DNA from: Heptranchias perlo
Taxonomy: Eukaryota
NCBI RefSeq assembly: GCF_035084215.1
Contig: NC_090366.1
Location: 10,230,001-10,294,000 of the forward strand
Direction of reading: 5' to 3'
DNA length: 64,000 bases
A program made the translations under genes and the position numbers. The notes under the pieces are model-generated. The model ran no database searches, was not told the DNA's origin, and saw only the letters and a list, made by a program, of their open reading frames with translations. Positions within the stretch are counted from its first letter, which is position 1. Each line of letters starts with the position of its first letter. Of the stretch, positions 13,157 through 55,985 are shown one piece after another.

Positions 13157-13354
13157 GTAAGTTTCTTTCCCATTTATTCATGTTTTTATTATTCTAGCTC
13201 TTCAGTGTGAATGCCTCGAGCATGCAAATGAGGTGATGTCCCTCCTTAACTCAAAGGGTAATAGAAACATAGGGTGTAGATGAAAGACGAGATGATTATT
13301 ATCCAATTCTCTGATATATTGTGACTCAAATACCCACTTCCATCCTTAGGTTAG

Positions 13355-17000: not shown

Positions 17001-17403
17001 TGGTATCTAGGACATACCCGGTCTGTATCGCACTGGGAAGTGTTGTAACCAATAGGGTAGATTAGTTCTTCCTTATTTGTAAAGAGTTAATGTTGATTGT
17101 AAATGCTGCGTGTCTGACTGTTTGGCAGGATTGTAGGTCGAAGGTTCATTATGAGATGAATTCATATGATAAAATGAATGCTGGTTAACGAAATGATGCC
17201 AATATTAATTGGCGAGGCAGTTACTTATTTTATACAAGGGATAATTCACAATAGGTAACTTAATTTCAATACAGAGCACACAGACAGTATAATAGAATTA
17301 GATTATGCTTCTAATTCTTTCTCAGACTTTAGATCGAATCGCCACTCGACAAATTTAAGATTGAGATGTCCGGTCACACATGCGTTTCCTTCTCGTCTTA
17401 CAG

Positions 17404-17701
17404 ATAATCCAGATATCTCAGATTCAGGGGAAATGACTGATGGACAACCAGTCAGATTGACCTGTTCTATTACCTACAGTTGCCTAAATTGCAAACTCCA
17501 ACTGAAGTGGATTGATTACAATGGTTCTTTTCCATTTTGGTGGAATCGCTAAGATAGAAAAGAGACTGTGAATGAACTTCTGAGTTCGTGGGCAGTTTCA
17601 TCCACGTTTACCTGCACATCACGGGAAAACGGTGGGATGCAAATTTATAATCGATGGTGTGAGAACTAATGACCCACAATCTCTTACGCTGGAGGTTTTA
17701 T
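17404..17701 (+). pseudogene. Siglec-like copy 1, disrupted C2-set exon
   Basis: cttacag|DNPDISDSGEMTDGQPVRLTCSITYSC...LKW; in-frame TAA at 17550-17552; 298 nt versus 312 nt in copy 2 (14-nt deletion, frameshift); HGKTVGCK...LTLEVL|gtaagt in the shifted frame. Confidence 0.88.
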
Positions 17702-18099
17702 GTAAGTAACTGCTCTAAACTTCATGGAACCAACTTATCGCAAACGACTTCAATGCTTCAAGGGGTAGAAAATCGTGTTGAGCGGTAGATTGGAACTCTA
17801 TATCGGGTGGAGCTTATGACAGTGTCACCGTCCATTTTGTACTGTGCATTCACCACATGCAACTGCAATTGATACTAGCTCAATTGCTAAATTTAAATCT
17901 GAGATAGATAGCTTTTTGGCAACCAAAGGTATTAAGGGATATGGGCCAAAGGCAGGTATATGGAGTTAGATCACAGATCAGCCATGGTCTTATCAAATGG
18001 CGGAGCAGGCACGAGGGGCTGAATGGCCTACTCCTGTTCCTCTGTCTACCTGCTGTAGAAGCTTTAATGTGGAATGGGTTTAGGGCAGTGTGAATCCCG

Positions 18100-26269: not shown

Positions 26270-27390
26270 ACACAAAGGACACGTTGTGCAGGTACACAAA
26301 GATCAGATAGTGCAGATGCAAGAAGATCTCGTGGTACAGATCCACAAAGAACACGTGGTACAGATACACAAAGTACACGCCATACAGGTACACAGAGAAC
26401 ACGTGGTACAGATACACAGACAAAACGTGGTGCAGATACAGAAAGAACACGTGGTCCAGATACACTAAGAATACGTGTTACAGATGCACAAATGAAACTT
26501 GGTGCCAATACACAAAGAATTACAACTAGCTATAAAAAGCACACGTGGTACAGATACACAAATAGTTGTAGTGCAGATATACAAAGCACACCTGGGACAG
26601 ATTCGCAAGTACAGATTCTCAAAGAACACGTGCACAGATACACAAAAACACTTAGCACAGATAAACAATGAACACGTGGCACAGATACACAATGAACACG
26701 TGGTACACATACACAATGAACACGTGGTACAGATACACAATGAACACGTGGTAGAGATGCACAATGCTCACATGTCACAGATATGCGCAGAATATTTGGA
26801 GATACACAAAGAACAAGTGGTAATGATAAACAAACACCACGTGGTGCAGATACACAAGGAACACCTGGTACAGATGCGCATAGAACACCTGGCACAGATG
26901 CAAAAAGAACAAGTGATATAAATACATGAAGAACACATGGTCCAGATACACAAATAACGATGTGGTGCAGATACAAAAGGACCGCGTGTTACAGATACGA
27001 AATGAACACGTGGTACAGATACACAAAGTACATTCAGCACAGATACATAAAGAGCACGTGGTTCAGATACATAAATAACATATGGTGCAGATGTATAAAG
27101 AATTGCGGTACAGGTATACCAAGCGCACCTGGTACAGATGTACAAAGACACTCGTGCAGATACACAAAGAACATGTGGTACAGATACATAAAGAACACGT
27201 GGAACAGGTACACAAAGAACACGTGGTACAGATCAACAAAGAACACGTGGTACAGATACATAAAGATAACGTGGTACAGATTCAAGAACAAAACGTGGTA
27301 CAGATACCCAAAATACACATGGATCAGATACGCAAAGAACATGCGGTACAGATACACAAAGAACACGTGCTACAGATACACAAAGGAGTA
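26270..27390. repeat. 24-bp minisatellite (consensus gaacacgtggtacagatacacaaa), about 46 degenerate units
   Basis: Visible periodicity; yields 8-aa repeat ORFs (EHVVQIHK / VYLYHVFF) in several frames. Confidence 0.95.
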
Positions 27391-30781: not shown

Positions 30782-30824
30782 ATGAACAGCAGAAATATTA
30801 TTTTCATTCTGGTATTTAGTGAAG
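30782..30824 (+). CDS. Copy 2 exon 1, signal peptide MNSRNIIFILVFSE
   Basis: gtcATG, donor gaag|gtaaaa; continues VVHCS-RW in exon 2. Confidence 0.8.
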
Positions 30825-33800
30825 GTAAAATATTCTTTTGAATATTTCTCTCAAGCGATTTCCATTTTGTGGCAAAATAACAAAGTAATTAGTTATAGAA
30901 ATAATAAATAGCTAGTGATTTGGAAATTCGCGAAGAAGGTTTTTAATGTATATTATATTCGGAACTGAATCCTGTAATTTATTCGGATTATTTAATACTT
31001 AATGTGTGTTTCATTGGGAATCAAAGGACATTTTAATGGAACAGTTCCACTGGGATATTTACGAGTTTAAATGGGTAAGGAGACGCAAATATCGGTGGGT
31101 GTTAAAAGGGTCATTTAATGGTATTTATCTGGAATTGTAGGGAATGTTTTAATTGGAACATTATTGTGGATTTCATTGGGTGTTTAATTTCTATTTTTCA
31201 TCAGTTGTCCATTGTTCACGATGGTCTGTGAACATGCCGTGGTTTGTGTCGGCAGTGAACGGTTCATGTGCAGAGATCCCGTGTACATTTGATTATCCCG
31301 CCTATGGCCGCAGTCCATGGGGTATGTGGTTAAAGGGGGGTTCTGATCCCAGTAGCCGACGTGTCTCAATTGTCTATGATCCCAGAGCTTCAAACAAAAT
31401 AAACGTTAACTATTTGGGACGAACTGAGTTGAACGGCAACTTTGTAAAGAAACAATGTTCCTTACGGATTAAAGATATCAGGAATAGCGATGAAGGTGAA
31501 TATTACTTCAGACTGAAGATCAGCACTGCCCGGAATGTTACAGAACAATACACTTCCATATTGCAGGCCAATATTTCTATTTTAGGCAAGTTTTTTTTCA
31601 TTTGTTTCTTCAGTAGTTAATATTCCGTCTCCTCAGTGCCATGTAATTTAAGCCTAGAATGGAAAGATATCGTGATACTTTTGGCCTACGTCGCACGTTA
31701 TAGCGGCACGGCTTGTCCATTGAATATTACCCAGGTGAGTGTTATGTATTCTCTTGAAGAGATGTATGATACTGGGCTACTCTTCATAACTTACAGAAGC
31801 TCCCCGCGTTATTCGGTTGCTAAGTGCAACCTTAGATGTTGTATTGAACCGTAAACACCGGGGGGTCAAAATTAAATCCATAATTGAAGCGAAAAAGTAA
31901 GTCAAAGTTTTTAATTCTGAAGGAAGGGTAGGTTGGATATGGTCTAAACACGGGAGGGATTTCGAGCGTCAGTCAGGACTATCTTCAACCATCGTTTTGA
32001 GATGTCAGCAACGCAGTGAGTGAGTGGAAGTTAATTGACTGGCCAATAACCTGAATAATTCATGTGATAAAGCACATGTGATCCGATTAGTTCAGTAATT
32101 GTAAGGATTTATTGACTTTAGGCATCTTTCCCTGCAGCTGAGAGCAGGCGGAACAGAACAGAATTCATTTTTAAGGTGATATTTTCTCAGTGTTTGGGTT
32201 GAATCGCCTGGCACATCATTGGCCGTTTTCAAAATTGAAATCCACTATAATTTCCTTCTCCCCTTACAGAAAAACCAAGTATATCAGTCTCTGGGGAATT
32301 AATTGCTGGACAACCAGCGCAACTGACCTGCTCGATCACCCACAGTTGCCCATCCGCTAACCTTGAGCTGAAGTGGACTTATGATCAAGGTTACTTTCCA
32401 TATCTGACAGAGACTAAAACTTCAGAACAAAATGTCAACGGTTTGGATGATTCCCGGAGGGTTTCATCCATTTTCACCTTCGTCCCATCCTCGGATCATC
32501 ATGGGAAAACGCTGGGATGTAAACTTATAGTTGAAGGTGTCGAAGCGACTGTTCAAGAAACTCTTACACTGGCCGTTAAATGTAAATACCCGCTCAATGC
32601 TTGATTCAACCAGTTGGTTGATAAACAGGTTCTAATGTTATTTTTATTCTCAGTGCAGTGAGAGCTCGACTGGATAATAAATTAATCGAATTGTCTATCA
32701 GCTAATTCTTGTCAGTCACTTTACTAAACATTTTTCCCAGAGAATTGGAGTAATATTGGTGGTTCCACGGGTGTGGTTTTTGTACAATATTAATCCAAAG
32801 GATCCCAATGCCTGATGACATTTTAGCCACAGAGTAACTGATTAACATTAAATATAATGTACAGCTCAAAAACAGGCCATTCGGCCCAACGAGCCTGCTC
32901 CCACTTCTCTGCATCCAATCCCATCAACGTGACCTATTCTTTTTACCCTCGTGTGTTTCTCTAGCTTCCCCTTAAATGCATCATACAGACCAGGAGAGTG
33001 TGTTTTGAATTAGCTGGGGCGGTGGGGTCGAGATGCTACACTTGGCCTCAACACCCCTGTGTGAGAGAAGGGAAAGTCGACCAAGTTCTTGTTCTGGGAG
33101 GAATGGTCACTTGGTTGACGTACCGCTGGACTCGAACCTTACCCGGGCAAACAAACAAATCTCTAATGACAAGAGGGGAAACGATGCTTATGTTGGAAAT
33201 GAGCTTAAGGTCTGAGACATCAAAAAACACGAGAGTTGTGTGAACACGGGGGAAATGAGACCCATGCGTAGTCATTGTGGAACGGATCACTGATGTCCCT
33301 TCATACATTTAATAGATTCACACTGTACTTACGTTGTATGAAAATCTGTGTTGAGCTGTTTGCAGTGACCAAGTTATCTCCAGCCATGCGCCAATGTTAC
33401 ATTTATGTTACGTTTGATCTACAACTGAATTAGCAAGATAGTCACCATATCTTACTTAATATTGTTGTTTGGTTGTCACTTAATTTGTTTTTTTTTCTCT
33501 TACGCGCTGGAATTCTCATTTACCGCCAATGGCCTCATCAGTACCAGTTGCCCCGCGGAAACCAACCGTCAATTCCTCTATAGTAGCAGTGGAAGGGAGT
33601 TCAGTATTACTGTACTGCACGGCCCAGGGTAAACTACCGGTCAGTTTAAGATGGGTGAGAGATGGTTCGGAGATCAGCATGTCTTCCACCGGTGAACTGC
33701 GGCAGATATTTCACAACATTAGTTCTAAAGATGACGGACAATATTGGTGCGTGGCTGAAAATATCGTGGGCAAAGCAAACAGCTCCACACAGATTTCTGT

Positions 33801-36800
33801 ACAATGTAAGTGCGGTGTGAAACTACCTTCATTCTCTTTATTATGTTACTTTACTGAAGTTAAGCGCGCTGTTATAAACAATCACCATCAAAACTCGTAG
33901 ACTGGGAGTGGAGTTAATCATTTCCTATTTATCTCATTGATATTTGGAAAGCTAATCTTCCTCACACCAGGTTCCGTTGAGGATCAAACGTAACATAAAT
34001 GTAACAGTGGCGCATGGCTGGAGATAACATGGGGACCGCAAACAGCTCCACACAGGTTTTTGTACAACGTAAGTACAGTGTGAACCTATTAAATGTAAAA
34101 AGGGACATCAATGATCCGTTCCACAGTGACTACGTATGGGTCTCATTTCCCCCGTGTTCACACAACTCTCTCAATAGCCGATGTTAGTAATATTCACAGA
34201 AAATCCAGTAAAAGAAGGAGAATTTGACCACATTTAGCGTGTAAAAAACATCGTTAAAAACCAGAGACGCCAATGCACAAAAGCAGGTAAAATGTATCTA
34301 GACTGGTTAAAACCAAATGAATGAATATGTGAGATGTGAAACGCCAGAATTAATGTGCGGGGGACTGATCCCAGCGATCCTGAACTGGGTAGCTGGTACT
34401 GTTGAGGTCATTGGCGGCCAATGAGAAGTCCAGCGCATAAAGGAGAAAAAACATTTTAAGTGACAACCAAAAACAATATTAAGTAAGATATGGTGACTAT
34501 CTCATCAAATCTAAATTGAAAAGCGAGCTCGTGTTTTTTGATGTCTTAGACCTTAAGCTCATTTCAAACATAAGCTCTCTTGTCATTAAAGATTTGTTTG
34601 TTTGCCCGGGTAATCTTCTAGTCCACCGATACGTCAACCAAGTGACCATTCCTCCCAGAACAAGAACTTGGTCGACGTTCCCCTCCCTCACACAGGGGTG
34701 TTGAGGCCAATTGTAGCATCTCGACCCCACCGCCCACCCACCCCCAGCTAATTCAAAACACACTCTCCTGGTCTGTATGATGCATTTAAGGGGAAGCTAA
34801 AGAAACACACGAGGGTGAAAAGAATAGTTCACAATACCCGACTAACTCACCTCAACTCTCAGTTCTGGTAAAACTGTTCGTATTTAATCGAATAAACTTC
34901 TACCTTTGTGACTGACTAATAAGTTATTCTGACTGGGTAATCGCCCACAGCACGAAGTTAAATGGATCAAATGACCGCTCATTGTTTCAATGTGAACTTA
35001 TAACTGAGTTATTGATTGCTAGAATTTAGCAAAAAGCAAAATCTGATGATGCATTAAACGAATGTATCATTGTATGGCTCCAATTAAACACGGCTGTGCA
35101 GTAACCTCTCTGGTTAGTCTAAAGGTCCAAATGGTTCTACTGAGAAACGACAAACTGCTTGATGAAAGCTAACGGAAGCTGAACTGCTCTTATTTTTTTT
35201 TAGATAAACCTTCAATAGTGTCAGGCCCGAACTGCACCATTTCTGAGAGTGGGATTGATTGTACCTGCAGTGTCAGAGCCAACCCCCCGGCAAACATCAC
35301 ATGGGGTCTCAATGGAAGAAACATCACTAGGTACAGTTCAGATGGTGAAGTTATCTCCTGGGCAGTGACTGGTCACCTGGTGCAGAGCTCCCTGACATTG
35401 ATTCACCCAACTAGAACTGGAAACCAGATCTCATGTGTTGCAGCAAACAAGCACGGCATTAGTGTCGGCAAATATCAACTCCAATTAGCAGGTAAGTCCT
35501 GACATTTCCTGGAATTTAATTACTGGAGCTGGATTTTTCCGTCACTGGCCCGCCACTAAGTGAACGGTGTTAGTGTCAGCAAATACCAGCTCCATTCGCC
35601 AGTTGAATACCAAACCCATCTGCAATTAAGGACAGAATCCATTGGATAATTTAACTAGTCTCCAGGTATGGTCCGCCACTGACCACTCACTCACTAAAAG
35701 TTGCGATCGGAATAATACATTATTTTATTTATTTGTTCATGTGATGTGGGCGTCGCTGGCAATGCCAGCATTTATTGCCTATCTCCAAGGTGGTGGTGAG
35801 CCGCCTTCTTGAACCGCTGCAGTCCGTATGGTGAAGGTTCTCCCACAGTGCTGTTAGGAAGGGAGTTCCAGGATTTTGACCCAGCGACGATGAAGGAACG
35901 GCCGATATATTTCCAAGTCGGGATGGTGTGTGACTTGGAGGGGTGTTGTTCCCATGTGCCTGCTGCTCTTGTCCTTCTAGGTGGTAGAGGTCGCGGGTTT
36001 GGGAGGTGCTGTCGAAGAAGCCTTGGCGAGTTGCTGCAGTGCATCCTGTGGATGGTACACACTGCAGCCACGGTGCGCCGGTGGTGAAGGGAGTGAATGT
36101 TTTGGGTGGTGGATGGGGTGCCAATCAAGCGGGCTGATTTGTCCTGGACGGTGTCGACCTTCTTGAGTGTTGTTGGAGCTGCACTCATCCAGGCAAGTGG
36201 AGAGTATTCCATCATACTCTTGACTTGTACCTTATAGATGTTGGAAAGGTTTTGGGGAGTTAGGAGGTGACTCACTCGCGGCAGAATACCCAGCCTCTGA
36301 CCTGCTCTCGTAGCCACGGTATCTATGTGGCTGGTCCAGTTAAGTTTCTGGTCAATGGTGAGCCCCAGGATGTTGATGGTGGGGGATTCGGCGATGGTAA
36401 TGCTGTTGAATATCAAGGGGAGGTGGTTAGACTCTCTCTTGTTGGAGATGGTCACTGCATGGCACTTGTCTGGCGCGAATGTTACTTGCCACTTGTCAGC
36501 CCAAGCCTGGATGTTGTCCAGATCTTGCTGCAGACGTGTCACTGATTTATCGGATTTGGTTATCGTTGCATTGTTTTCCTCAATATCGGAAGGGATTAAT
36601 ATAAAACAGTATAAGTACCATGCGATCTTGAATAAAACAGAATCTTCTGAATTAACTCGACGCTTTCTGAAGTCAGGTTGTCTCGCACTACAACAGGAGC
36701 GGGCTGCAGTCCATCATTGAATTCACACTTGCTCAGTTCTATCTTGTTCATACATTTCAAATAAACAGCTCTTCCAGCTATTTCAGACTGCTCCTGGGAT

Positions 36801-39800
36801 TGTTTTCCTTGAGATGTTCTGAGAAGACTCTTAATTTGGGTAATGTGGAAAATGGAGTCTGAATACCTGAATACCTGGGATAATTGAAGATTAGAGACTG
36901 AATTCAAATAAGGCTCGCAAGCGAATGAACCATGTTTGTGAGATGAATATTGGCACACATTCGGGATTGGAGACTGAATTCTTTGTTGTGCTTTATTCAG
37001 TCCTCAATAACATCCTTTCAAGGTTGATGTCATCCTGGTAATTTAAATACAGCACCGTGTGAGGGGGGTTCGTTTGTTGCTTCCTGACCCCATGTTGCAT
37101 TTTACCAAATGTCTCAGTTACGTTAAAAAATTCCGACTGTTTTATCGAGGCAGAGGTGTATTCGATGGACTGTCCGTGTACGTTTCTCTTTCCATGATTT
37201 GATATGTACGGAACAGATAGGAATTCAATGTATAAATATTTATTTTAAATTTACACAGGGCATAGAACAAGGGTAAAATGATGGGGGAAATCCAGTGTTA
37301 GTTCGTGGAAAAAGCAATCAGTTCAAATCCTACCCTGTCCATTTTCTGCGAATATTTCCCAATATATTAATGCAGCATATTGATGTTTTTTAGAGAGATT
37401 AGATTAGGGATCATTTTCAAATCGTGCGTCCTTTGATCGCCGGGTCAGAGTTCTGAGGTTTCAGTAAATATATAAAATCTTTGGGTCTGACTTTTAAGAT
37501 GTGAATCTCTAGGAAACTCGCCAATTCAGGCGGATTAACGTTATCCTAATACCATGTTGTAATCGTAGAGCAATAATGAACAACAAAGTTGAGGGGCATA
37601 GATAAGATAGATAGTCAAAATCTTTTCCCAAAGGTAGGGGAGTCTATAACGAGGGGGCATAGATTTAAGGTGAGAGGGGAGAGATAAAAAAGGGTCCAGA
37701 GGGGCAATTTTTTCACTCAAAGGGTGGTGAGTGTCTGGAACGAGCTGCCAGAGGCAGTAGTAGAGGCGGGTACATGGGGAAGATGGGTATAGAGGGATAT
37801 GGGCCAAGTGCAGGCAACTGGGACTAGCTTAGTGGTATAAACTGGGCGACATGGAGATGTTGGGCCGAAGGGCCTGTTTCCATGTTGTAACTTCTATGAT
37901 TCTATGATTCTATAAAGTATTTTTGAATATTTCAGGAACTTTTCCCTGGATAATTGTCATCGCAGCTGAAGCAGCGGCCACTTTGATCATCCTGTTTCTG
38001 ATCGCGGTGATGTTACTGAGGTATGTGTGGTGCACAGTTTACATGAACTCTTGTGTTAATCACAGATCTGAAAGGGGTCCATGGCATCAGGATTTCTGCC
38101 TCTGAGAAACTATTACAGTGAACTGTGTGGAGGATAATAACAGATATCAGGAGGACATGGACAGACACATGACAGATGAAATTGAACGCAGAGAAGTGAT
38201 TCATTTTGGTAGGAAGAATGAGGAGAGGCAATATGAAGTAAATGGTACAATTTTGAAGGGAGTGCTGGAACAGAGAGCCTCGAGGGTGCATGTACACAAA
38301 TCTTTGAAGGTGGCAGGAAAAGTCGAAAAGGTCGTTCAAAAGCATTTGGGATCCTGTGTTTTATAAATAGAGGCATAGAGTGCAAAAGCAAGGAAGTAAT
38401 GCTGAACCTTTATAAATCACTGGTTGGGCCCCAGCTGGAGTATTGGGTCCAATTCTGGGTACCACACTTTAGAAAGGATGTAAAGGTTTTAGAGAGGGTG
38501 CAGAGATTATTTACTAGAATGGTACCAGGGATGAGAGACTTCAGTTACGTGGACAGACTGGAGAAGATGGATTGGTACTCATAGAGCAGAGAAGTTTAAG
38601 AGGAGATTTGATAGACGTGTTCAAAATCATGAACGGTTTTGATAGAGTAAATAAGGAGAAACTGTTTCCAGTGGCAGAAAGGCCGGTAACCAGAGGACAC
38701 AGATTTCAGGTGATTCGCAAAGAACCAGAGGCGACATGAGCAAACATTTTTTTTAAGCAGCGAGTTGTTATGATCTGGAATGCACTTCATGAAAGAGCGG
38801 TAGAAGCAGATTCAATAATAACTTTCAAAAAGGACTTGGATAAATCACTTGACGGACAAACAAATCATTACTATGGGAAAGAGCAGGAGAGTAGGACTAA
38901 TTGGATAGCTCTTTCAAATAACCGGAACAGACGCGTAGGGCCGAATGGCCTCCTTCTGTGCTGTACCATACTATTTTACTATGATGCTATTTCTTCAAAT
39001 ACTTAACCCTTGAAAGCTTTGGCCCTGAAACTCAGCTCAGAGTTGTCTATCGCTTCTCCCAGCTCGAATAACAGACCGGAATAATTCTACTCTAGACTTT
39101 GGCTCAGTCTCCTTCGCTTCTAAGTTTAAAGTTTGTGGTTCCAGCCTCCAAATAAAACATGAGCCCCGCATCGAGCCGGACACACCACTGTAGTGTAGTG
39201 CGGCATTGTGGGAGGTGCCGTCTTTCACATCAGACATTAAACCTAAGCATCGTCTGCATGCTCAAGCGGATGTGAAATATCCCTTGATAATATTGGCGGA
39301 AGAGAAGGGAGTTTCCCCCGTGTCATGGCAAAAATATATCCAGCCAGTCAAGCCAGGAAAACAGATTAACTGTTCACTTGACTCGCGTGGGATCTTCCGA
39401 TTGCTCTTTAGGCAATATGTTAGGCCTATGTTTGCAAATCCGGCCTCATTAATCACACCTCTGCTACTTAATAAGATGTTAATTTGTGAAACAAAGTGTT
39501 AATAAACAATAAAATTACCCCGCTATTTCATATAGTGGGAACACACTTGATAAAAATCCTCTAATTGTTTTTGAAACAAAGTGTTATCTTAGTGTGAGGA
39601 ACTCCTATGACCGTTATTTGAACAGTTGTTCGCAATCTATCTACAAGTGTGATAAAATACTGTGCAGGCTGATCTTTTCTCCAAGTGCAGACTGCACCAA
39701 TTCATTATCCAGCTTCATGGGATAGAGAGAAATCGTCATTCAGAAATATGTAACCGTAAGGATAGAACAGAAACTGGAAGGAAATCATGTCTATGCTAAT

Positions 39801-42800
39801 CAGGAAACGTTATATACACAAATCCTTGATGACGTAGGGCACCAGAAGATTTATTAACCTTAAATATAAGCAGTTATGAGATTTTCATTATTTGTATTGT
39901 TTTGAATCAGGAAGAAGACAAGAGACACCGTTAGTGTCCCCGCAACAAACAACGATTCTGTGACTTACGCTGCGGTGCAGCACCCGTTTAACACTGAGGT
40001 AAGTGAGGAGATGGAAATTGTCCAGCATTCGCTGGAGTTACCTGCCTGATATTTGCTCTGTTTGTAACCAGTGGAAATGACATTCAACACAAAACGCAAC
40101 GGTTTAACGGGTGCTTTAGATACTTGTTTTGACGGAATTTTTACAGGGTGGAAGGGCCACCTCAGCCTACTGACAGGAACTGATGCGCTGGTCATGACCT
40201 GATAAATCGGTCATGGACATTTACAGTATTGGGGATTTTATTGAATTCAAAGTAGGTCGAAGAAAATCGTTTTCTCATATCACTTAAGGAAACAAATCTT
40301 GCACTGCCCTCCCTCATGACATTATGACACTCGGGGGATGGGGTTGGTTCGTGAATCTTTGGAATTCTCTCCCCCAGAGGGCTGTGAATACTCAGTGGTT
40401 GATTATATTCAAGGCTGAGATGGGTAGATTTTTGGACTCTAAGGGAATCATGGGATATGGGGATTGCGGAGGAAAGTTGAGTTCAGGTCGTTGTTCAGCC
40501 ATGAACTTATTGAATGGCAGAACAGGCTCGAGGGGCCCTATGGCCTCCACCTACTGCTATTTCATATGTGCGTTGCTTTAAATTCTCAGCAAGATCACAG
40601 TTTGTGACGGGCCTGAGAAGCGCCAGACCGCATTGCAGTTCTCTTGGATTATCTGCATTTTCCTCCCTGGATTTTACGTCCCAATTTATTCTGGGGTGGG
40701 ATCGGTCCGTGCGAGGGGCCTGGGTGTGCAACATGCTCGCCTGCCGAAAGCCGGATTGATTTTACGCCCGGTCCAAGCCCCGGCATAAATAATTGCCTGG
40801 CCGGCCGGCGCGCCCATATTTTTGTGAAGGAGAAGGCCGCTGCTTGCGACCGCGGGAATAGCCCCCAAAAGTCAGGTAAGGGTTGGAAATGGGGGCGAAG
40901 TTGATCTGGGTAGGGGGAGAGGAGTCCGCGACAAGGCAGCCATAAGGTTGCCTTGTGGCGCCAGAAGCAGTACTCCTGCCGCTCCTGGCTCACAAGGAAA
41001 TCGATATAAGAAATAAAAACTCACTGGGGCTGTTCTGGCCACCATTCAGCTCCCGACACGTCTCCCTCGCTAAGGCTTCGGGCTAAAATGACGCATTGGG
41101 CTCCAATGCCATATATGGAGTCCGATCCGCATATTTATAGAGGGCCCCGCCGTCTTGCGGTGGATGTCCTTGCCCCCTGCAATTTAAAATTGCAGGCGGT
41201 CATATCTGAGCGGGAAAGGGTTAGATAAGTAGCCCGCTCCATTTTAAGTGTCCTACCTCGTATCCGCCAGGCGCACGGAGTTAGATTCAGGGCATTAATA
41301 TTGGTTTGGATGAGTTGGTCGCGCCCACGGTCTGTTTCACAGTGTTGGTGGTTCAAAGCCTACGTCACCCAACGTGGATGCAGGAAGGATGTTTTCCCTT
41401 TCTGGGGGGTCCAGAACGGGGGGGGGGGGGGGGGTCACAGTCTCAGGATACGGGGTAGGACATTTAGGACTGAGATGAGGAGAAATTTCTTCACTCAGAG
41501 GGTGGTGAACCTGTGGAATTCTCTACCACAGAAGGCTGTGGAAGCCAAGTCACTGAATATATTTAAGAAGGGGCTACATAGATTTCTAGACACAAAAGGC
41601 ATCAAGCGGGATGGGGAGAGAGCGGGAATATGGTATTGAGATAAAGGATCAGCCATGATCATATTGAATGGCGGAGCAAGTTCGAAGGACAGAATGGCCT
41701 ACTCCTGCTCCTGTCTTCTAGAATCATAGAAGTTACAACATGGAAACAGGCCCTTCGGCCCAACATGTCCATGTCGCCCAGTTTATACCACTAAGCTAGT
41801 CCCAATTGCCTGCACTTGGCCCATATCCCTCTATACCCATCTTACCCATGTAACTGTCTAAAAGACAAAATTGTACCCGCCTCTACTACTGCCTCTGGCA
41901 GCTTGTTCCAGACACTCACCATCCTTTGAGTGAAAAAATTGCCCCTCTGGACCCTTTTGTATCTCTCCCCTCTCACCTTAAATCTATGCCCCCTCGTTAT
42001 AGACTCCCCTACCTTTGGGAAAAGATTTTGACTATCGACCTTATCTATGCCCCTCATTATTTTATAGACTTCTATAAGATCACCCCTTAACCTCCTACTC
42101 TCCAGGGAAAAAAGTCCCAGTCTGTCTAACCTCTCCCTGTAAGTCAAACCATCAAGTCCCGGTAGCATCCTAGTAAATCTTTTCTGCACTCTTTCTAGTT
42201 TAATAATATCCTTTCTATAATAGGGTGACCAGAACTGTACACAGTACTCCAAGTGTGGCCTCACCAATGCCCTGTACAACTTCAACAAGACATCCCAACT
42301 CCTGCATTCAATGTTCTGACCAATGAAACCAAGCATGCCGAATGCCTTCTTCACCACCCTATCCACCTGTGACTCCACTTTCAAGGAGCTATGAATCTGT
42401 ACTCCTAGATCTCTTTGTTCTATAACTCTCCCCAACGCCCTACCATTAACGGAGTAGGTCCTGGCCCGATTCGATCTACCAAAATGCATCACCTCACATT
42501 TATCTAAATTAAACTCCATCTGCCATTCATCGGCCCACTGGCCCAATTGATCAAGATCCCGTTGCAATCCTAGATAACCTTCTTCACTGTCCACAATGCC
42601 ACCAATCTTGGTGTCATCTGCAAACTTACTAACCATGCCTCCGATATTCTCATCCAAATCATTAATATAAATAACAAATAACAGCGGACCCAGCACCGAT
42701 CCCTGAGGCACACCGCTGGACACAGGCATCCAGTTTGAAAAACAACCCTCTACAACCACCCTCTGTCTTCTATCGTCAAGCCAATTTTGTATCCAATTGG

Positions 42801-43846
42801 CTACCTCACCTTGGATCCCATGAGATTTAACCTTATGTAACAACCTACCATGCGGTACCTTGTCAAATGCTTTGCTGAAGTCCATGTAGACCACGTCTAC
42901 TGCACAGCCCTCATCTATCTTCTTGGTTACCCCTTCAAAAAACTCAATCAAATTCGTGAGACATGATTTTCCTCTCACAAAACCATGCTGACTGTTCCTA
43001 ATTAGTCCCTGCCTCTCCAAATGCCTGTAGATCCTGTCCCTCAGAATACCCTCTAACAATTTACCCACTACAGATGTCAGGCTCACTGGTCTGTAGTTCC
43101 CAGGCTTTTCCCTGCCGCCCTTCTTAAACAAAGGCACAACATTTGCTACCCTCCAATCTTCAGGCACCTCACCTGTAGCGGTGGATGATTCAAATATCTC
43201 TGCTATGTTTCTATGTCACATTTTGAGCCTTCCATCCAGAGTTTGACTCGGATGTAGCACAGAGCAAGTGCTGCATTAAGGGAGGTGCCGTCTTTCAGAT
43301 GACTGCTTAATCCAGGGCCTTGGCTGCCTGTTCCAGTAATCCAGTTGGATGTTAGAAATCTCAATGCAATATTGGAAGAAGAGTCGGGATTTCTCCAAAT
43401 GTAATGGTTAAAATTGGTCGAAACGTCACCAAAATTGATCGCCAGGTCATTCTACTCATTTGCTTTTATTGTGGGCGAATTAGCTGATGTAATTTAAATG
43501 TAATCCATTGGTTACAACATGCTGTAATGAGGTGCTATGTAAACACACGTTACTTATTGTTTTAGAGCTTAAAATGCTTTACTCACTGAGTAGGGACATT
43601 AGACCATACCAGGTAGGGAATAACGCGAGTTATTCTGGTACAGGAAGCGCACTCCCACCTAGCAGCAGTTCCATATCTAATTCCTACTTTCTGTTCCAGA
43701 GCCAAGGCCAGTATGCAAACACTGATGTTCGAGGGGCTGCCTCCAAACAATCAGCAGAAAGAGAAAATGTGCTGTACGCAGCTGTCAAAGTATCAAACGT
43801 TCGCAAACATGAGAAATATCTCCAGAATGAGGAGTCCAGTGAATAG
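30782..43846 (+). CDS. Siglec-like (MAG/CD22/CD33-related) inhibitory receptor, copy 2; 8 exons, 533 aa: join(30782..30824,31205..31585,32270..32581,33548..33805,35204..35491,37936..38020,39911..39998,43700..43846)
   Basis: Exon phases are all compatible (1,1,1,1,1,2,0), total 1602 nt with no internal stop; signal-V-C2-C2-C2-TM-ITIM-ITIM; orthology not assignable from sequence alone. Confidence 0.88.
31205..31585 (+). CDS. Copy 2 exon 2, Siglec V-set domain
   Basis: WSVNMP...GSCAEIPCTFDYP...KQCSLRIKDI...DEGEYYFR...EQYT; Arg codon 31510-31512; donor is GC (ag|gcaagt). Confidence 0.92.
32270..32581 (+). CDS. Copy 2 exon 3, C2-set domain 2 (absent from ORF track)
   Basis: cttacag|EKPSISVSGELIAGQPAQLTCSITHSCPSANLELKW...FTFVPSSDHHGKTLGCKL...LTLAVK|gtaaat; extra Cys (HSCP) for the Siglec interdomain disulfide. 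Confidence 0.92.
32929..34832. repeat. Three pairs of inverted repeats surrounding exon 4
   Basis: 32929-33232 vs 34525-34832; 33231-33420 vs 33982-34170; 33436-33556 vs 34395-34502; ORF 32998..33243(+) matches 34497..34763(-). Confidence 0.9.
33548..33805 (+). CDS. Copy 2 exon 4, C2/I-set domain 3
   Basis: FAPRKPTV...EGSSVLLYCTAQG...LRW...DDGQYWCVAEN...ISVQ|gtaagt; a second in-frame AG lies 6 nt upstream (start 33542). Confidence 0.92.
35204..35491 (+). CDS. Copy 2 exon 5, membrane-proximal Ig domain resembling MAG domain 5
   Basis: tttttag|YKPSIVSGPNCTISESGIDCTCSVRANPPANITW...SSLTL...ISCVAANKHG...|gtaagt; C-x8-CxC pattern. Confidence 0.9.
35725..36535 (-). mobile_element. Second-family LINE 3' fragment in intron 5
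   Basis: ORF 35772..36542 LQQDLDNIQAWADKWQVTF...MEYSPLAW. Confidence 0.9.
37590..37913 (+). mobile_element. Young CR1 3' fragment inserted just upstream of the TM-exon acceptor
   Basis: Target duplication aaagt at 37585-37589 and 37914-37918; near-identical to the 3' end of the CR1 at 41720-43203. Confidence 0.88.
37936..38020 (+). CDS. Copy 2 exon 6, transmembrane segment
   Basis: tttcag|GTFPWIIVIAAEAAATLIILFLIAVMLL(R)|gtatgt. Confidence 0.88.
38118..38980 (+). mobile_element. Degenerate CR1 3' portion in intron 6
   Basis: ORFs 38118..38366, 38399..38584 (LYKSLVGPQLEYWVQFW), 38770..39006. Confidence 0.88.
39911..39998 (+). CDS. Copy 2 exon 7, cytoplasmic, ITIM VTYAAV
   Basis: aatcag|(R)KKTRDTVSVPATNNDSVTYAAVQHPFNTE|gtaagt; phase 2 in, phase 0 out. 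Confidence 0.88.
41720..43203 (-). mobile_element. Young 5'-truncated CR1 LINE with open 441-aa RT ORF, nested in the tail of another CR1 fragment (41385-41720)
   Basis: ORF 41842..43167 with uninterrupted RT motifs ([32 protein letters not shown]). Confidence 0.95.
43700..43846 (+). CDS. Copy 2 exon 8, terminal cytoplasmic exon (QYAN, ITIM VLYAAV)
   Basis: ttccag|SQGQYANTD...ENVLYAAVKV...EESSE* then AAIKLK* in frame to 43867. Confidence 0.88.
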   Translation, partial: SQGQYANTDVRGAASKQSAERENVLYAAVKVSNVRKHEKYLQNEESSE

Positions 43847-44164
43847 GCCGCAATTAAATTGAAATGAAATGCAGCAGGATTTACACCATTCGGAGAGAGG
43901 GAGCTCATTAGCATCTTCACACAATTGGTTTTATGAGCTAGAACAGGAACTTCACATTCCAGGAAGTGCTGTGAGAATGGACATCTTTCAGACATTAATT
44001 GATAACATTTTTAATATCTTTGTGAGAGTATTTGATTTACAATCCAAACACGTCTTTGGTTTCCAAACACACTTGTGAAAAGCAGCGGGAAATGGGCTTT
44101 AATCGTCAATATGAATTGATACCTGTTCATCTGCTCTAGTAAACCAACTATTTTCTTAATTCGA

Positions 44165-44260
44165 ACGTTGTATTTATTTAAGACCTCTCTTTGCTAATTT
44201 ATTAAAAAGCCCTGTCGATCAGCGTTCACTGTCTCTATCCGGGGTTGGGTTTGTTTGCAC
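44165..44260 (+). terminator. Candidate AU-rich element and polyadenylation signal of copy 2
   Basis: tatttattta at 44171-44180, ATTAAA at 44201-44206, GT-rich stretch downstream. Confidence 0.4.
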
Positions 44261-44659
44261 CCTCTCCCAGCCCATTGTAACAGGCGATTACCAGAGTGTA
44301 AACTTCCATCAGTTTGTTTATTGTGGTTTCACCGGCATCGGCAGAAGGGAAGGAATGATAAAGGTTGGATCTGTGGGTTTGGTGAATCCCTACAGTCAGC
44401 CTTTCTGCTCCGGATTCAGGCTTAGCATTTCAAAAAAAATATATTATCGAGAAGGTCAGGTCGCTAACAACGGGCCAATTTATTTCTCATCCCGAGCTGT
44501 CCTGAGTTTGATCCGATTGAATGGCTTGCTAGGCCACTTCAGAGGGCAGTTAAATGTCAACCACGTTGATGTGGGACAGGAGACACATATTGGCGGAGAC
44601 TGACTAAGGACAGCAAGTTCTCTTGGATAAATAACATGAGTGAACCAGTTGTGTTTTTA

Positions 44660-45078: not shown

Positions 45079-46287
45079 ACCTTTCTATTCCCACATTTTA
45101 AAAAACTGAATTCATATTCTCAAGCTGCCATGGTGGGATTCTGAACTCACGTTCTCTTGATTACGAGTCCAGTGACATAACCACCACATCGCCAACCGAT
45201 CAGTGAAATTGAATAAAACTGACAAGAGTTTTGAGCAAATTGTACGAGGCTCATCCGGTCACTTCACTCTGATCTGTAATATAAAATGACAATTGACGCT
45301 GGACGTCAGTTCCACGGCAGTAATAACACGGACCTTTTACCCCCTGCTGGCAGAATTAGTTTGAACTGATTCTGTCTCTCAATCAAATGCCAATGGCGCC
45401 GAATGCTTAAAGTTGACGGGGTTTGATTGAGTTCCCGATTGAATCCAGAATTTGTTTACTCAAATTGATGTAGATAAAAATATCCATATTGTTTCCTCCA
45501 GCATTGACACTCGAATCTAAAAGCTCAAGTCACACGCCCCAGATCTAGTTCTGAATCACAGACCGGTCATTGTAGCTACCGGGTTATAAATGAGTTAATT
45601 TCAGAAGATTTCACATCGCTGGAGTGTGAAAATGAACAGTTGAGGTCACTTCGAAATATAGCAAACTCTTTTGTGCCTTTGACATTTCAGATACACGTTG
45701 TGCCCCGAACCACTGAAGGTGATAAACCCAAATGTCTGGAGACAGCGGCTACAGAACTAACCACACCGTCTCGTTCATAGCGCCTTGGCAGCCAAGTGGC
45801 TAAACATGTGGGAGATGAAAGGCTAACGTTTGTGTATCAGGTTATTTTAGATATTCGAATCTTAAATGTTAGTTCCTGTCCAGTAAATGTGTAACTGATG
45901 AGGGGGAGGGGTAATTCTCTGATCGAGAGTCTGGCGCTATGTTGACCTTATATCCAGTAACTATGGTCTCACATTGATGTCCCTTTTCATATCCGAACTG
46001 TTCGAGAGTGCGAGCAGTTATGGTCACTAACAGTGAAGGGGTATCTCAAGCTGTGTGAGTTCACACGGTTCCCAATGATTGGCTGGTGCCCAACAGCTGG
46101 TCTTCCAATACTCTGTTTCGATTGTCATCGATATCGATTATATTCCCGGCGAGCGGAATCCAGACCCGTGATTAGTCTTAGATCGGATTGAGATAGTTGT
46201 TTTTTTTATCGTGTTTCCATCATGAACCGTGTGTAGTGATGAAGAATATGAAGTTCGTTTCTCTCTTATTATTTAGCGAAGGTAAAT

Positions 46288-46735
46288 TCATAGAATAATA
46301 GAAAGGTTACAGCACGTAAGGAGGCCATTCGGCCCATCAAATCCCTGCCGGCTCTATGCAAAAGCAACCCAGCTAGTCCCACTCCCCGCCCTATCCTCGT
46401 AGCCCTGCATTTTTTTTCCTTTGAAGTGCTTATCCAGTTCCCTTTTGAAGGTCATGATTGAATCTGCCTCCACCACCCCCTCGGGCAGTGCATTCCAGGT
46501 TCTAAACACTCACTGTGTAAAAAAGTTTTTCCTCTTGTCACCTTTGCTTCTTTTGCCAATCATATTACATCTATGACCGCCAATGGGAACAGTTTCTCTC
46601 TATCTACTCTGTTTAGATCCTTCATGATTTTGAACACCTCTATCAAATCACCTCGCAACCGTCTCTGTTCCAAGGAGATCAATCCCAGCTTCTCCAGACT
46701 ATCCACGCAACTAAAGCCCCTCATCCCTGGAATGA
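46288..46735 (-). mobile_element. CR1 3' fragment inserted about 6 nt downstream of the copy 3 leader-exon donor
   Basis: catagaataatagaaagg tail follows ggtaaa; intron homology to copy 2 resumes at aaaatattcg (~46736). Confidence 0.8.
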
Positions 46736-48264
46736 AAATATTCGTTATAATTATTTCTGCTGGAGACGTTTTCCATCTTGTGGAAAAATAACAAAGTAAT
46801 TAGTTACAGACATGGTATATTGTTAGTTTGTGATTTGTGAATTCATGAAGTGGCTATTTCAGGTATGTTACATTCGAAACTTTAATCTGTATTTTATTCG
46901 GATTTATTGAACACAATGTGTGTTTTATTCGGTATCAATGAGAATTTTAATGGAATTTAAGAAGTTTCAGTGGGGTTTCCACGTGTTTTAATGGTTGGTG
47001 ATGTATTGATTAATGGGTGATTAAAGAGTAATTTAAAAGCATTTAGCTGGATTGTACGGGAATGTTTGAATTGGAACGTTTTTGGGTATTTCAATGGGTG
47101 TTTGATTTCTATTTATCATCAGTTGTCCATAGTTCACCATGGTCTGTGGCGATGCCATGCTTTGTGACGGCAGTGAGCGGTTCAGGTGCAGAGATCCCGT
47201 GTAAATGTGATTATCCCGTCGATGGCCGCAACCCACGGGGTATGTGTTTAAAGCGGGGTTCTGATCCTGGAACCCGAGGAGTCTTTATTGTCTCTGATCC
47301 CAGAGGCCCAGTCAATATACACTTGATCTACAGAGGGCGAGCTGAGTTCACCAGCGACTTCACATAAAAACAATATTTTTTACGGATAAAATACATTGAT
47401 GAAGGTGACTATTAATTCCGACTGAAGAAAACCAATGCCCGGAATATTATAAAAGAACATGCTTCCAGGTCACATGTCAATCTTTCTATTTTAGGTATTT
47501 TTGTTTTCGTTTGTTCCTTTTTTCGTTTATATTCCATCTTCTCAGTACCATTTAACTTAATCCTCGAATGGAAAGATATCGTGATACTCCTAGCCTACGT
47601 CACAAGCTACAGGGAGGCTGCAGGTACATTGAATAATACCGAGGTGCGTGTTACGTTTTGACTTGAACAGAAATAATTGAATTCTCAGCAACTTGCAGAA
47701 GCTCCCTCCATTTTTAATGCCACATCCAGTCGTGAATGGTGGTGGACAATTAAACAACTAACGGGAGGAGGAGGCTCTGCAAACATCCCCATCCTCAGTG
47801 ATGGTGGAGTCCAGCACGTGAGTGCAAAAGACAAGGCTGAAGCGTTTGCATCCATCTTCAGCCAGAAGTGCCGAGTGGATGATCCATCTCGGCCTCCTCC
47901 CGATATCCCCACCATCACGGAAGCCAGTCTTCAGCCAATTCGATTCACTCCACGTGATATCAAGAAACGGATGAGTGCACTGGATACAGCAAAGGCTATG
48001 GGCCCCGACAACAACCCAGCTGTAGTGCTGAAGACTTGTGCTCCAGAACTAGCTGCGCCTCTAGCCAAGCTGTTCCAGTACAGCTACAACACTGGCATCC
48101 ACCCAGCAATGTGGAAAATTGCCCAGGGATGTCCTGTCCACAAAAAGCAGGACAAATCCAATCCGGCCAATTACCGCCCCATCAGTCTACTCTCAATCAT
48201 CAGCAAAGTGATGGAAGGTGTCGTTGACAGTGCTATCAAGCGGCACTTACTCACCAATAACCTG

Positions 48265-48930
48265 AGGCGAGACCATGCAGACGCTGCGACAACGGATGAA
48301 CGGACACCGCACAACAATCGCCAAACAGGAGGGTTCCCTCCCAGTCGGGGAACACTTTAGCAGTCATGGACATTCATCCACCGACCTTCGGGTAAGCGTA
48401 CTCCAAGGCGGCCTTCGAGACACACGACAACGCAAAATCGTCGAGCAGAAATTGATAGCCAAGTTCCGCACCCATGAGGACGGCCTCAACCGGGATCTTG
48501 GGTTCATGTCATGCTACACGTTACCCCACCAGCGAACAAATGTTATCTGTTTTTAATATAATGGGTCATTTGCTGGCTCTCTCTGCCTTCCGGATGTTTC
48601 TGCCTCTCTCTGTTTTTTTTCTCTGTTTTTTTTCCCTGTTTGTTTTTTTGTTGAATGTGTATTCGGGGGTTCTGCAGGTGACACCTCTCTGTCTGAACAC
48701 GGTGATTGCCTTGGCAACGGGCAGTTGCAGGGGCAGTCTGTAAACACCATGTATTGTTCTATATGTATAAATGCGTAGGCTTCAAGGAGCTCCTGAAACA
48801 TTTACCTGAGGAAGGAGGAAGTCTCCGAAAGCTTGTGAATTTAAAATAAAATTGCTGGACTATAACTTGGTGTTGTAAAATTGTTTACAATTGTCAAACC
48901 CCAGTCCATCACCGGCATCTCCACATCATG
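48265..48930 (+). mobile_element. Penelope-like element 3' fragment (GIY-YIG endonuclease C-terminus plus pLTR)
   Basis: ETMQTLRQRMNGHR...VGEHF...EQKLIAKFRT...GLNRD (ORF 48275..48556); 12-bp target duplication accaataacctg at 48253-48264 and 48931-48942. Confidence 0.88.
48800..48840 (+). ncRNA. Minimal type I hammerhead ribozyme-like motif in Penelope pLTR
   Basis: atttac-CTGAGGA-a-ggag(gaagt)ctcc-GAAA-gc-TT-gtgaat: core boxes, stem II, palindromic AAGCTT, 6-bp stem I. Confidence 0.7.
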
Positions 48931-51900
48931 ACCAATAACCTGCTCACCGATGCTCGGTTCGGGTTCCACCAGGACCACTAGGCTCCAGACCTCATTACAG
49001 CCTTGGTCCAAACATGGGTGAGGTGAGGTGAGAGTGACTGCCCTTGACATCAAGGCAGCATTTGACCGAGTGTGGCACCAAGGAGCCCTAGTAAAATTGA
49101 AGTCAATGCGAATCAGGGGGAAAACTCGCCAGTGGCTGGAGTCATACCTAGCACAAAGGAAGATGGTAGTGGTTGTTGGAGGCCAATCATCTCAGCCCCA
49201 GGGCATCGCTGCAGGAGTTCCTCAGGGCAGTGTCCTTGGCCCAACCATCTTCAGCTGCTTCATCAATGACCTTCCCTCCATCATAAGGTCAGAAATGGTG
49301 ATGTTCGCTGATGATTGCACAGTGTTCAGTTCCATTCACAACCCCTCAAATAATGAAGCAGTCCGAGCCCGCATGCAGCAAGACCTGGACAACATCCACG
49401 CTTGGGCTCATAAGTGGCAAGTAACATTCGCGACAGATAAGTGCCAGGCAATGACCATCTACAACAAGAGAGAGTCTAACCACCTCCCCTTGACATTCAA
49501 CGGCATTACCATCGCCGAATCCCCCACCATCAACATCCTGGGGGTCACCATTGACCGGAAACTTAACTGGACCAGCCATATAAAGACTGTGGCTTCGAGA
49601 GCAGGTCAGAGGCTGGGTATTCTGCGGCGAGTGACTCACCTCCTGACTCCCCAAAGCCTTTCCACCATCTACAAGGCACAAGTCAGGAGTGTGATGGAAT
49701 ACTCTCCACTTGTCTGGATGAGTGCAGCTCCAACAACACTCAAGAAGCTCGACACCATCCAGGACAAAGCAGCCCGCTTGATTGGCACCCCATCCAGCAC
49801 CCTAAACATTCACTCCCTTCACCACCGGCGCACTGTGGCTGCAGTGTGTACCATCCACAGGATGCACTGCAGCAACTCGCCAAGGCTTCTTCGACAGCAC
49901 CTCCCAAACCCGCGACCTCTACCACCTAAAAGGACAAGAGCAGCAGGTACATGGGAACAACACCACCTGCAGGTTCCCCTCCAAGTCACACACCATCCCG
50001 ACTTGGAAATATATCGCCGTTCCTTCATCGTCGCTGGGTCAAAATCCTGGAACTCCCTCCCTAACAGCACTGTGGGAGAACCGTCACCACACGGACTGCA
50101 GCGGTTCAAGAAGGCGGCTCACCACCACCTTCTCAAGGGCAATTAGGGATGGGCAATAAATGCCGGCCTCGCCAGCGACGCCCACATCCCGTGAACGAAT
50201 AAAATAATAAGTGTAATGCTGGACTGTAATGTTTTCAGATTCCCATACATGCTGATAAACGCTATCCTCATACCGTGTTGTAATCTTAGAAGAATAATGA
50301 GCAGCAAGCTTTTTCTTTTGAATATTTTAGGTACATTTTCATTGATAATATCCATGCGAATAAGAGCAGCCGCCGCAGTTATCATTCTGATTGCAGTCGT
50401 TGTCTTGGTGAAGTTTGAGAGGAATCTGCAAAAGTTCGAAAAGCAACTGGATGTGTTCCCTCCAGGCATTCAAACCACAGGTGGGATGTTGGTTAATGTA
50501 CCTCATCGGCATTGTTATCTCCTGGAACTCCTTTTAGTGATCAGAGAGGAATTTAACATATTTTTTTGATGAAGTGGCCTCATGCTTTTTATCTATTTTT
50601 TGCCTCTTCCTGGTGGTGGGAGGGAAGGCGCGTGTCCTGATGCTTTGATGGGTCATGACAGTTTGGGTCATGCTCGATGGACCAGTCGGTCTTTTCCTTC
50701 CCGTCTTTTCGTACGTGTGTAAGTTGTAAAGCTCAAAATGTTCCCCTAACTCAGTAGGAACAATAGATTAGTGCCAGAGGTGGAATTAAGCGGATTATTC
50801 CGGTACTGAAAGCGCACTCTCACCCGGAACAATGACTCCATGTCTAAGGCAGTACGTTATGTTATAGAGCCCAGGCCTTTATATAATCATTGGCCTCTAT
50901 GGTGTGAAGAGGAGTTGTATGCAGTGGGCAACGTTTGAAACTTTCGCAAACTTGAAAGATATCCCCAGACTGAGGAATCCAGTGAATACCCCGCAATTAA
51001 ATTTAAGTGAAAATCGAATGGGATTTACTGCATTTGGACGGATAGATCTGATCAATAACTCAACACATCTGGTTTCATGAGATAGAACAGGGACTTCACA
51101 CTCAGGAAGGGCTGTGAAAATGGACATCTTCCCGAGATTAATTGCGAACATTTTCAATTCTCTTTGTTGGAACATATGATTTATAACCCCACACAGTTTT
51201 CATTTTAACCAACAATCTGAAATGCAGTGAGGTAGACTTTAATGGTCAATATAACTTTTCAATAACTTTATTTTTACTTTAATAAACATAATTAATTTCC
51301 TAAGTAATTTTAACGTTGTTTCCATTTAAGGCTTCCCTCTCTCACCTTGTTATATGGTCCTGTTGCACGGCGTTTAACGTCTCCAAAGGCGGCTCTGTTA
51401 GTTTGGAAGCCTCTCCCATCCAGTGTAACAAATGTTCAGCTCAGTGTCAATTTTCATCAGTTTCATTCACGACGATATCCAGACATTTATAAACATATAG
51501 CTTCATTCAGAAGCAGTTTGCAATGGAAGCGAACTGATTACAAAGGGCGGAGCAGGGAGTTCCATGAATTATTGAAGTATGTATTGGATTCCACTCTTTA
51601 TCAAACTGTACTGAAAATTAATACTTGCTTAAAGATGGTGGGGCCATGGTTAGAAAATGATCATGACGTAACTGATCATTTGTTATTGTTTTGTTATCCA
51701 ATGAACGTGGATTACTTTACTTTACTTAAAGTCAAAATAAGCATCCACCCTTGCACAGACAGGTACAGTAGTCAACAGAAGAAATACGCTCTTGTTAGTT
51801 TGTACAGCAACTGGGTTAGACCCTCCCTTTTAACTCTCTGTGTTAGTGACAGTGTAAATATGGCTGGGGGATTCCATTTGGTCCCTTTGCGGTAGTGACA

Positions 51901-55834: not shown

Positions 55835-55985
55835 ACACAAAGAACATGTGGTGCAGGCCCACAAACAACACGTGATAGAGGGACATAAAGATCACGTGGT
55901 GTAAATACTCACAGAACACGTGGCCCAGATACACAAAAACATGTGGTACACATAGGCAAATAACACAGAGTACAGATACACGAAG
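55835..55985. repeat. Short paralogue (about 6 units) of the 24-bp minisatellite
   Basis: gaacacgtggcccagatacacaaa-type units between the same flanks as at 26270-27390. Confidence 0.85.

Follow-up and report, generated by a model that had tools for sequence, protein, structure and literature searches.

A transcribed nonsense change trims the third tyrosine motif from one Siglec-like receptor copy in Heptranchias perlo

The inhibitory Siglecs of mammals carry a cytoplasmic tail with one or more ITIMs and a distal ITIM-like or ITSM tyrosine (available excerpt of PMC9659267), and the ITIM consensus is given as [I/V/L/S]-x-Y-x-x-[L/V] in the parts of PMC7226832 and PMC10906256 available. The excerpted text of PMC10906256 reports that a distal-tyrosine mutant of CD33 (Y358A) kept 90% of inhibition and that a distal mutant of Siglec-9 (Y456F) kept only 40%. 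According to the same excerpt, SHP-1 is recruited to CD33 by the proximal ITIM, and SHP-2 is favoured by the distal motif. For Siglec-6, both tyrosines are described as required for SHP-2 recruitment (PMC9659267, in its excerpted portion). CD33-related Siglecs evolve by duplication, pseudogenisation and point loss of key residues, as stated in the available part of PMC13358205.

Here we analyse a Siglec-like receptor gene of the shark Heptranchias perlo in which a TAG stands in place of the terminal tyrosine codon. Positions refer to the window, the whole stretch of 64,000 nucleotides that was analysed. An initial annotation of this DNA had drawn attention to the stop and proposed that it might be recent, polymorphic or leaky.

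Gene structure and the stop codon

The receptor gene lies on the forward strand and has 8 exons. Their joined open frame contains 535 codons before the TAG and would contain 542 if the TAG were read through. A predicted signal-peptide exon (30782..30824) aligns with the N-termini of the models P0001 and P0035. It is followed by a V-set exon (31205..31585), in which Trp21 and Arg117 (31510-31512) are aligned to sialoadhesin and which ends at a GC donor. Three Ig exons come next: a C2-type exon at 32270..32581 (profile match; 100% to P0006), a C2/I-set exon at 33542..33805 (profile match; alternative acceptor at 33548), and a third, C2-type, at 35204..35491 (PF08205 at 25.5 bits with a cut-off of 21; 100% to P0006). 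The transmembrane exon (37936..38020) encodes a hydrophobic stretch with a Glu at 37968-37970. The first cytoplasmic exon (39911..39998) contains the ITIM VTYAAV (39960-39977, Tyr477) and is spliced to 43700 in RNA, and exon 8, the last coding exon, occupies 43700..43867, with RNA-type contigs running unspliced to at least 44117. Six of the seven introns are GT-AG; the intron after the V exon is GC-AG.

The V exon scores 40.4 bits with PF07686 and 40.0 bits with PF24518 (V-set and CD22-type first Ig models, both above cut-off), and the next three exons match C2-set or I-set models. Among solved structures its best matches are to sialoadhesin (E 2e-14), Siglec-10, -8 and -5, MAG, Siglec-7 and CD33. 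The F-strand Arg of sialoadhesin, Siglec-10 and others has its counterpart in Arg117, and the N-terminal Trp is aligned too. As judged from sequence, the predicted protein thus has the make-up of a Siglec, with a V-set domain bearing the conserved Arg of the sialic-acid site, further C2-set domains and one predicted transmembrane helix. Its tail also has the ITIMs of an inhibitory Siglec: VTYAAV (Tyr477) and VLYAAV (Tyr513, 43769..43786) both fit the consensus, are intact and lie 36 residues apart. Where an inhibitory Siglec has its distal ITIM-like or ITSM tyrosine, this gene has TAG.

The same gene is represented at NCBI by P0006 (XP_067831291.1, Heptranchias perlo, 'myelin-associated glycoprotein-like', 423 aa), with 100% identity in those exons where the tblastn match did not run past the exon, and with the same end at ESSE. 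That model is shorter than the 535 aa found here and gives no sign that the stop is derived; it has no signal exon and is short of most of the V domain, quitting the V exon after 29 codons. The V exon donor at 31586-31587 is GC (AG/GCAAGT), where both in-window copies have GT, and the NCBI model takes a cryptic GT near 31321 instead, losing most of the V domain including Arg117. AG/GCAAGT is the strong type of context for a GC donor. The Glu at 37968-37970 (Glu441) lies within the predicted transmembrane helix and is absent from both halves of P0001 and from P0035; P0007 (Scyliorhinus) has an Asp in its transmembrane segment. A putative extra exon at 39744-39833 was dropped, as it breaks the frame if included and is in no homologue model. 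An intronic open stretch at 39758-39854, just 5' of the first cytoplasmic exon, encodes HVYANQETLYTQI with two tandem tyrosine motifs; no in-frame donor was found for it, and no homologue model contains it.

By translation, 43832-43867 reads ESSE-stop-AAIKLK-stop, with TAG at 43844..43846 and TGA at 43865-43867. The TAG is codon position 536, in frame and 7 codons 5' of the ancestral TGA. What is left of the distal ITIM/ITSM-like motif in the tail alignment, S-E-stop-A-A-I, spans 43838..43855, and the six former codons with the ancestral TGA (43847..43867; translation and contigs) are now 3' UTR. The initial annotation placed the stop on the tyrosine of the C-terminal motif and ascribed it to a single C-to-G change removing 7 residues, including the conserved terminal S-x-Y-x-x-I motif; the translation and the Tyr in relatives bear this out. 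Its label 'ITIM-like' is a fair one, because S-E-Y-A-A-I falls between the ITIM and ITSM consensus; how far it resembles the C-termini of L-MAG and CD33 was judged only through the consensus in the available parts of PMC10906256 and PMC7226832. The seven lost residues are part of a disordered tail. Two details needed adjustment. The codons beyond the stop had been called intact: the six are open and the old TGA is in place, but codon 43859-43861, Phe in the nearest paralogues, is now Leu541 (TTG). The annotated 533-aa and 540-aa forms can be obtained with an acceptor 6 nt further into exon 4, but our preferred model gives 535 and 542.

Of 13 sequencing runs matching the window, eight (word share above 0.2) represent one sample and one animal. 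Four of the 13 were compared over 43540-44500 as assembled contigs, none of them from organisms B and C, whose runs have a word share of 0.05-0.07. X5, X6 and X8 are, by inference, probable RNA runs, and an exon-exon junction in X5 shows spliced RNA. X5 record 9 has 0 differences from the window over 43698-44087, and its loose 5' end is 39967-39996, the end of the upstream exon; a spliced transcript therefore carries the TAG. X8 record 13 also has 0 differences (43744-43982), and X6 record 11 (43758-44117) has two, yet it has G at 43846. The initial annotation held that TAC at this site would mean an assembly error, and contigs of all three RNA-type runs have G; as it had also stated, the stop is in the last exon, and the transcript with TAG is present in RNA-type contigs. 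C at 43846 was found in three contigs, each with linked paralogue differences. X2 record 2, from a DNA run, has five differences (43813, 43824, 43830, 43846 and 43861) that give the P0001 tail KYLRNAESSEYAAIKFK, and X5 record 10 and X6 record 12, with seven differences in 71 nt and unlike flanks, represent a more distant expressed paralogue. Across 43804-43968, X2 has the paralogue's path only and no contig of the window's own path; contigs drop alternative paths, and this gap was counted neither for nor against heterozygosity. No splice avoiding the stop was seen among the contigs over 43540-44500. Taken together, the nonsense change to TAG is real and transcribed, and it removes the third tyrosine motif from one Siglec-like copy. 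The data come from one animal, and a recent or polymorphic change, as proposed initially, is plausible.

The distant TAC paralogue (X5 record 10, X6 record 12) is expressed in the same animal at similar contig depth; its loose ends are absent from the window. At 43789 the TAG-bearing X6 contig has T for A (Lys to Asn), possibly a heterozygous site. We did not accept this contig as a second TAG haplotype, as 43789 lies more than 31 nt from 43846 and phase is not preserved.

Relatives and neighbouring copies

The tail was aligned with 19 other rows, made up of 17 named shark and ray models (P0001 counted twice) plus P0064 and P0081, which were kept on tail similarity. Left out of the count were P0006 (the same gene), P0034 and P0002 (isoforms of the P0035 locus), all non-chondrichthyan matches, and P0005, P0007, P0019, P0021, P0022, P0036 and P0055, which have no homologous tail. 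In these tails, which are those of automatic gene models, the TAG column holds Tyr in 15 of 19 rows. Four rows are without it: P0015 and P0018 stop short of the column, P0081 passes into different sequence, and the first half of P0001 is fused, in its model, to the following gene and says nothing about this column. No other row among the 19 ends at the TAG column. Tyr is retained in 15 rows at the first tyrosine motif, in 18 at the second and in 15 at the third, and 12 of the 19 have all three; P0015 (Heterodontus) and P0018 (Mobula) have the same two motifs as the TAG gene. Among the rows compared, the Tyr in relatives' tails marks the stop as derived and as confined to this copy, and the presence of Tyr in 15 of 19 tails indicates that the residue normally matters.

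In sharks and rays, Siglec-like receptors with three tyrosine motifs in the cytoplasmic tail form a multi-copy family. In a tree of 20 rows (19 from sharks and rays and one from a frog, mammalian Siglecs not being among them), the TAG gene groups with both halves of P0001 and with P0035 of the same species, with supports of 98/98 and 100/100, and the two paralogues of this group with a readable end have Tyr. Intact TAC or TAT copies in the same species are the second half of P0001, P0034/P0035, P0010 and P0012. The nearest paralogue, the second half of P0001, is 86% identical (451 of 526 columns) and has Asp at the first Tyr with the other two tyrosines kept. Changes unique to the TAG gene, compared with those unique to this sister, numbered 20 versus 26, 21 versus 21 and 10 versus 21 with three outgroups; on these protein comparisons, the TAG gene appears to evolve no faster than its sister copy. 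A protein search with the tail alone matched only the gene's own model (1 of 15 candidates). The NCBI model P0001 (1066 aa, 'hemicentin-1-like') fuses two adjacent Siglec-like genes and, in the last exon of the first, breaks off immediately 5' of the codon for the terminal tyrosine.

The window holds further copies. The downstream one (46242..51010, forward strand) consists of a signal exon, a broken V exon (47124-47493), LINE insertions and a last exon. It is dead, with in-frame stops in the V exon and an in-frame TGA upstream of its TAC, and relatives' proteins gave no C2 or transmembrane exon match between 47500 and 50900. The initial annotation used this copy as its comparator. The TAC at 50987-50989 is there, within ESSEYPAIKFK-stop at 50975-51010, but the 'paralogue' is a pseudogene and for that reason a poor comparator. 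That a dead copy still ends YPAIKFK-stop means that intact terminal codons outlast function.

A third Siglec-like copy lies upstream at 12790-17720, with an open V exon near 12790-13157 and a frameshifted C2 exon near 17397-17700; no further exons of it were found. On the minus strand there are two orphan last exons of a related type with an INYxTV ITIM, at 26262-26110 and 55830-55657. In the first, a frame break before the terminal tyrosine motif puts the motif out of frame; the second has Phe for Tyr in the terminal motif. No upstream exons were found in the window for either. Each adjoins a tandem array with units of about 24 nt, at 26270-27385 and, shorter, at 55835-55985.

Explanations for the truncation

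The explanation we favour, and consider probable, is a tolerated loss of the kind produced by ordinary birth-and-death variation in the shark Siglec-like cluster. A single C-to-G change would have turned the terminal tyrosine codon of one transcribed tandem copy into a stop, so that the predicted protein ends at ESSE with two of three tyrosine motifs kept. By analogy with mammalian Siglecs, Src-family kinases would add phosphate to Tyr477 and Tyr513, which would then draw in SHP-1 as well as SHP-2 through the phosphatases' tandem SH2 domains, and without the distal ITSM-like tyrosine SHP-2 recruitment would in the main be weakened or shifted, and inhibition not abolished. Redundancy within the tail and among neighbouring copies would account for the tolerance. 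Two other broken copies and two damaged orphan last exons in the window were counted in favour of a tolerated loss; private oddities of the gene (the GC donor on the V exon and the transmembrane Glu) were counted against it, as they could mark decay. The persistence of two intact inhibitory-type motifs makes ordinary variation in a fast-changing family, and not programmed readthrough, the likely account.

On the same analogy, the TAG form is likely to be a receptor that is still inhibitory, with SHP-2 recruitment weaker or shifted, and the effect on signalling is likely to be modest. It could exceed that, given that the Siglec-9 distal mutant falls to 40% and that Siglec-6 needs both tyrosines. 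The initial annotation set the importance of the motif loss too high, because two canonical ITIMs survive and tails short of one motif recur in the family.

A different reading takes the gene to be an incipient pseudogene, in which the stop is one among several lesions not under selection and from which no working receptor is made. We regard this as unlikely. At the V exon both in-window copies have a GT donor and this gene a GC, though in the strong AG/GCAAGT context. The NCBI model uses the cryptic donor, leaving out most of the V domain, and is without a signal exon; both neighbouring copies are dead. Against decay stand the 535-codon open frame, the retention of Arg117 and the Ig cysteines (the sister copy has lost one Cys) and the presence of a spliced transcript (last junction only). 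A Glu inside the transmembrane helix and the Phe-to-Leu change beyond the stop also point toward decay; amino-acid changes as a whole are not in excess over the sister.

We judge it improbable that motifs were partitioned under selection, the TAG copy keeping tyrosines 1 and 2 and its sister 2 and 3, with a differing SHP-1/SHP-2 balance and SH2 spacing. The losses are indeed complementary in the two closest copies (86% identity, 451 of 526 columns), the tyrosines are spaced 36 residues apart in the TAG copy and 23 in the sister, and the excerpt on CD33 assigns SHP-1 to the proximal ITIM and favours SHP-2 at the distal motif. This is one pair of copies, however, in which independent neutral losses would give the same pattern, and unrelated shark lineages, too, have in scattered cases lost the first or the third Tyr. 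If the partition were true and the stop fixed in this copy, the two genes would be a natural receptor pair tuned to different SHP-1/SHP-2 outputs in an expanded three-tyrosine Siglec cluster.

Programmed or functionally leaky readthrough, with Tyr placed at UAG to yield a regulated minority of full-length receptor, is very improbable. The available text of PMC4615788 lists UAG as decodable as Gln, Tyr or Lys, reports that A at -1 and -2 helps readthrough in yeast (this TAG has an A at each), and gives UAG-G as the core of the viral type III signal; the old TGA is, in addition, still in frame. Tyr would be inserted in a fraction of events only, however, and a type III signal requires a downstream pseudoknot, whereas all three stretches 3' of the TAG were no stabler than shuffles (z -0.18, 1.21 and 0.36, with pseudoknots not modelled). 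In the excerpt of PMC4615788, +4 G lies below C for UAG in all three mammalian UAG rows of Table 1, and basal readthrough is put at 0.01-0.1%. Stop identity and the +4 base are named as the main predictors of readthrough, with UAG contexts predicted worst, in the part of PMC10954755 available. The context here, UAG-GCCGCA, contains no CAAUYA, no CUAG and no strong readthrough motif bar the bare UAG-G. The codons flanking the site are identical in the TAC paralogue, so this context is inherited Ala-Ala coding sequence. An open six-codon frame is, moreover, expected under neutrality in most trials at low divergence: in a neutral simulation the six codons stayed open and the old stop was kept in 97%, 94%, 74% and 54% of trials at 1%, 2%, 10% and 20% divergence. 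The intact downstream codons are uninformative, because even a dead pseudogene keeps them. Nor is the stop shared, as none of the 19 other rows ends there and 15 have Tyr; a close relative's true orthologue was not among the sequences found. The known programmed systems (the mammalian UGA-CUAG; the viral UAG-CAAUYA and UAG-G plus pseudoknot) resemble this site in having an in-frame stop, a short extension that would restore a motif, and UAG followed by G; they differ from it in that this TAG is private to one copy, without a stimulatory motif or stable structure. We conclude that programmed readthrough is unlikely and that trace basal readthrough, not special to this TAG, is possible. With no strong motif beyond the bare UAG-G, no stable 3' structure and a stop private to one copy, the leaky readthrough suggested by the initial annotation is not supported.

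That G at 43846 is an assembly error is scarcely credible: the sole DNA contig across the site (X2 record 2) has C, but its four further linked differences spell the P0001 tail (KYLRNAESSEYAAIKFK), and contigs of all three RNA-type runs have G on this gene's own sequence.

Comparison with described receptors

MAG has five Ig domains and is a conserved single-copy gene. The TAG gene resembles MAG (Siglec-4) in its V-set plus C2 architecture, and its V exon matches solved MAG at E 1.6e-9, more weakly than sialoadhesin (E 2e-14); it has four Ig exons, as against five domains in MAG, whose solved ectodomain chain is 500 aa. A MAG orthologue was rejected on the four Ig exons, the same-species paralogue clade (98/98, 100/100) and the weaker MAG match. 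Judged from sequence comparison, the gene is best described as a lineage-expanded Siglec-like copy, and 'MAG-like' as an automatic label. CD33-related-like genes in fish have reportedly been the subject of earlier work, and for this reason we do not claim a shark cluster of ITIM-bearing Siglecs as new. Fish MAG is stated to have ITIMs, and fish genomes to be without inhibitory CD33-related Siglecs, in the excerpted part of a 2020 teleost paper (PMC7226832). Among the literature matches listed, no paper was devoted to shark Siglecs and none on Heptranchias perlo dealt with this locus.

The truncation itself is of little weight, involving seven residues in one of several redundant copies and being already present in a public gene model. 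It offers a natural variant with which to ask what a distal tyrosine contributes if two ITIMs are still there. More interesting than the stop is its setting, a multi-copy shark cluster of ITIM-bearing Siglec-like genes with three tyrosine motifs.

Mammalian CD33, Siglec-6, Siglec-7 and Siglec-9 share with the TAG gene a V-set domain with the conserved Arg, C2-type domains and a transmembrane helix, and the inhibitory members share the tail with ITIMs and a distal ITIM-like or ITSM tyrosine (PMC9659267, as excerpted). The CD33-related cluster is likewise tandem, with pseudogenes and quick turnover (available part of PMC13358205). Shark tails have three tyrosine motifs, unlike those of mammalian CD33-related Siglecs, and a distal loss therefore leaves two ITIMs and not one. 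CD33, Siglec-9 and Siglec-6 have only two tyrosine motifs to begin with, whereas the TAG gene still has two ITIMs; and the shark loss is a natural nonsense change, while the mammalian comparisons are engineered Tyr mutants.
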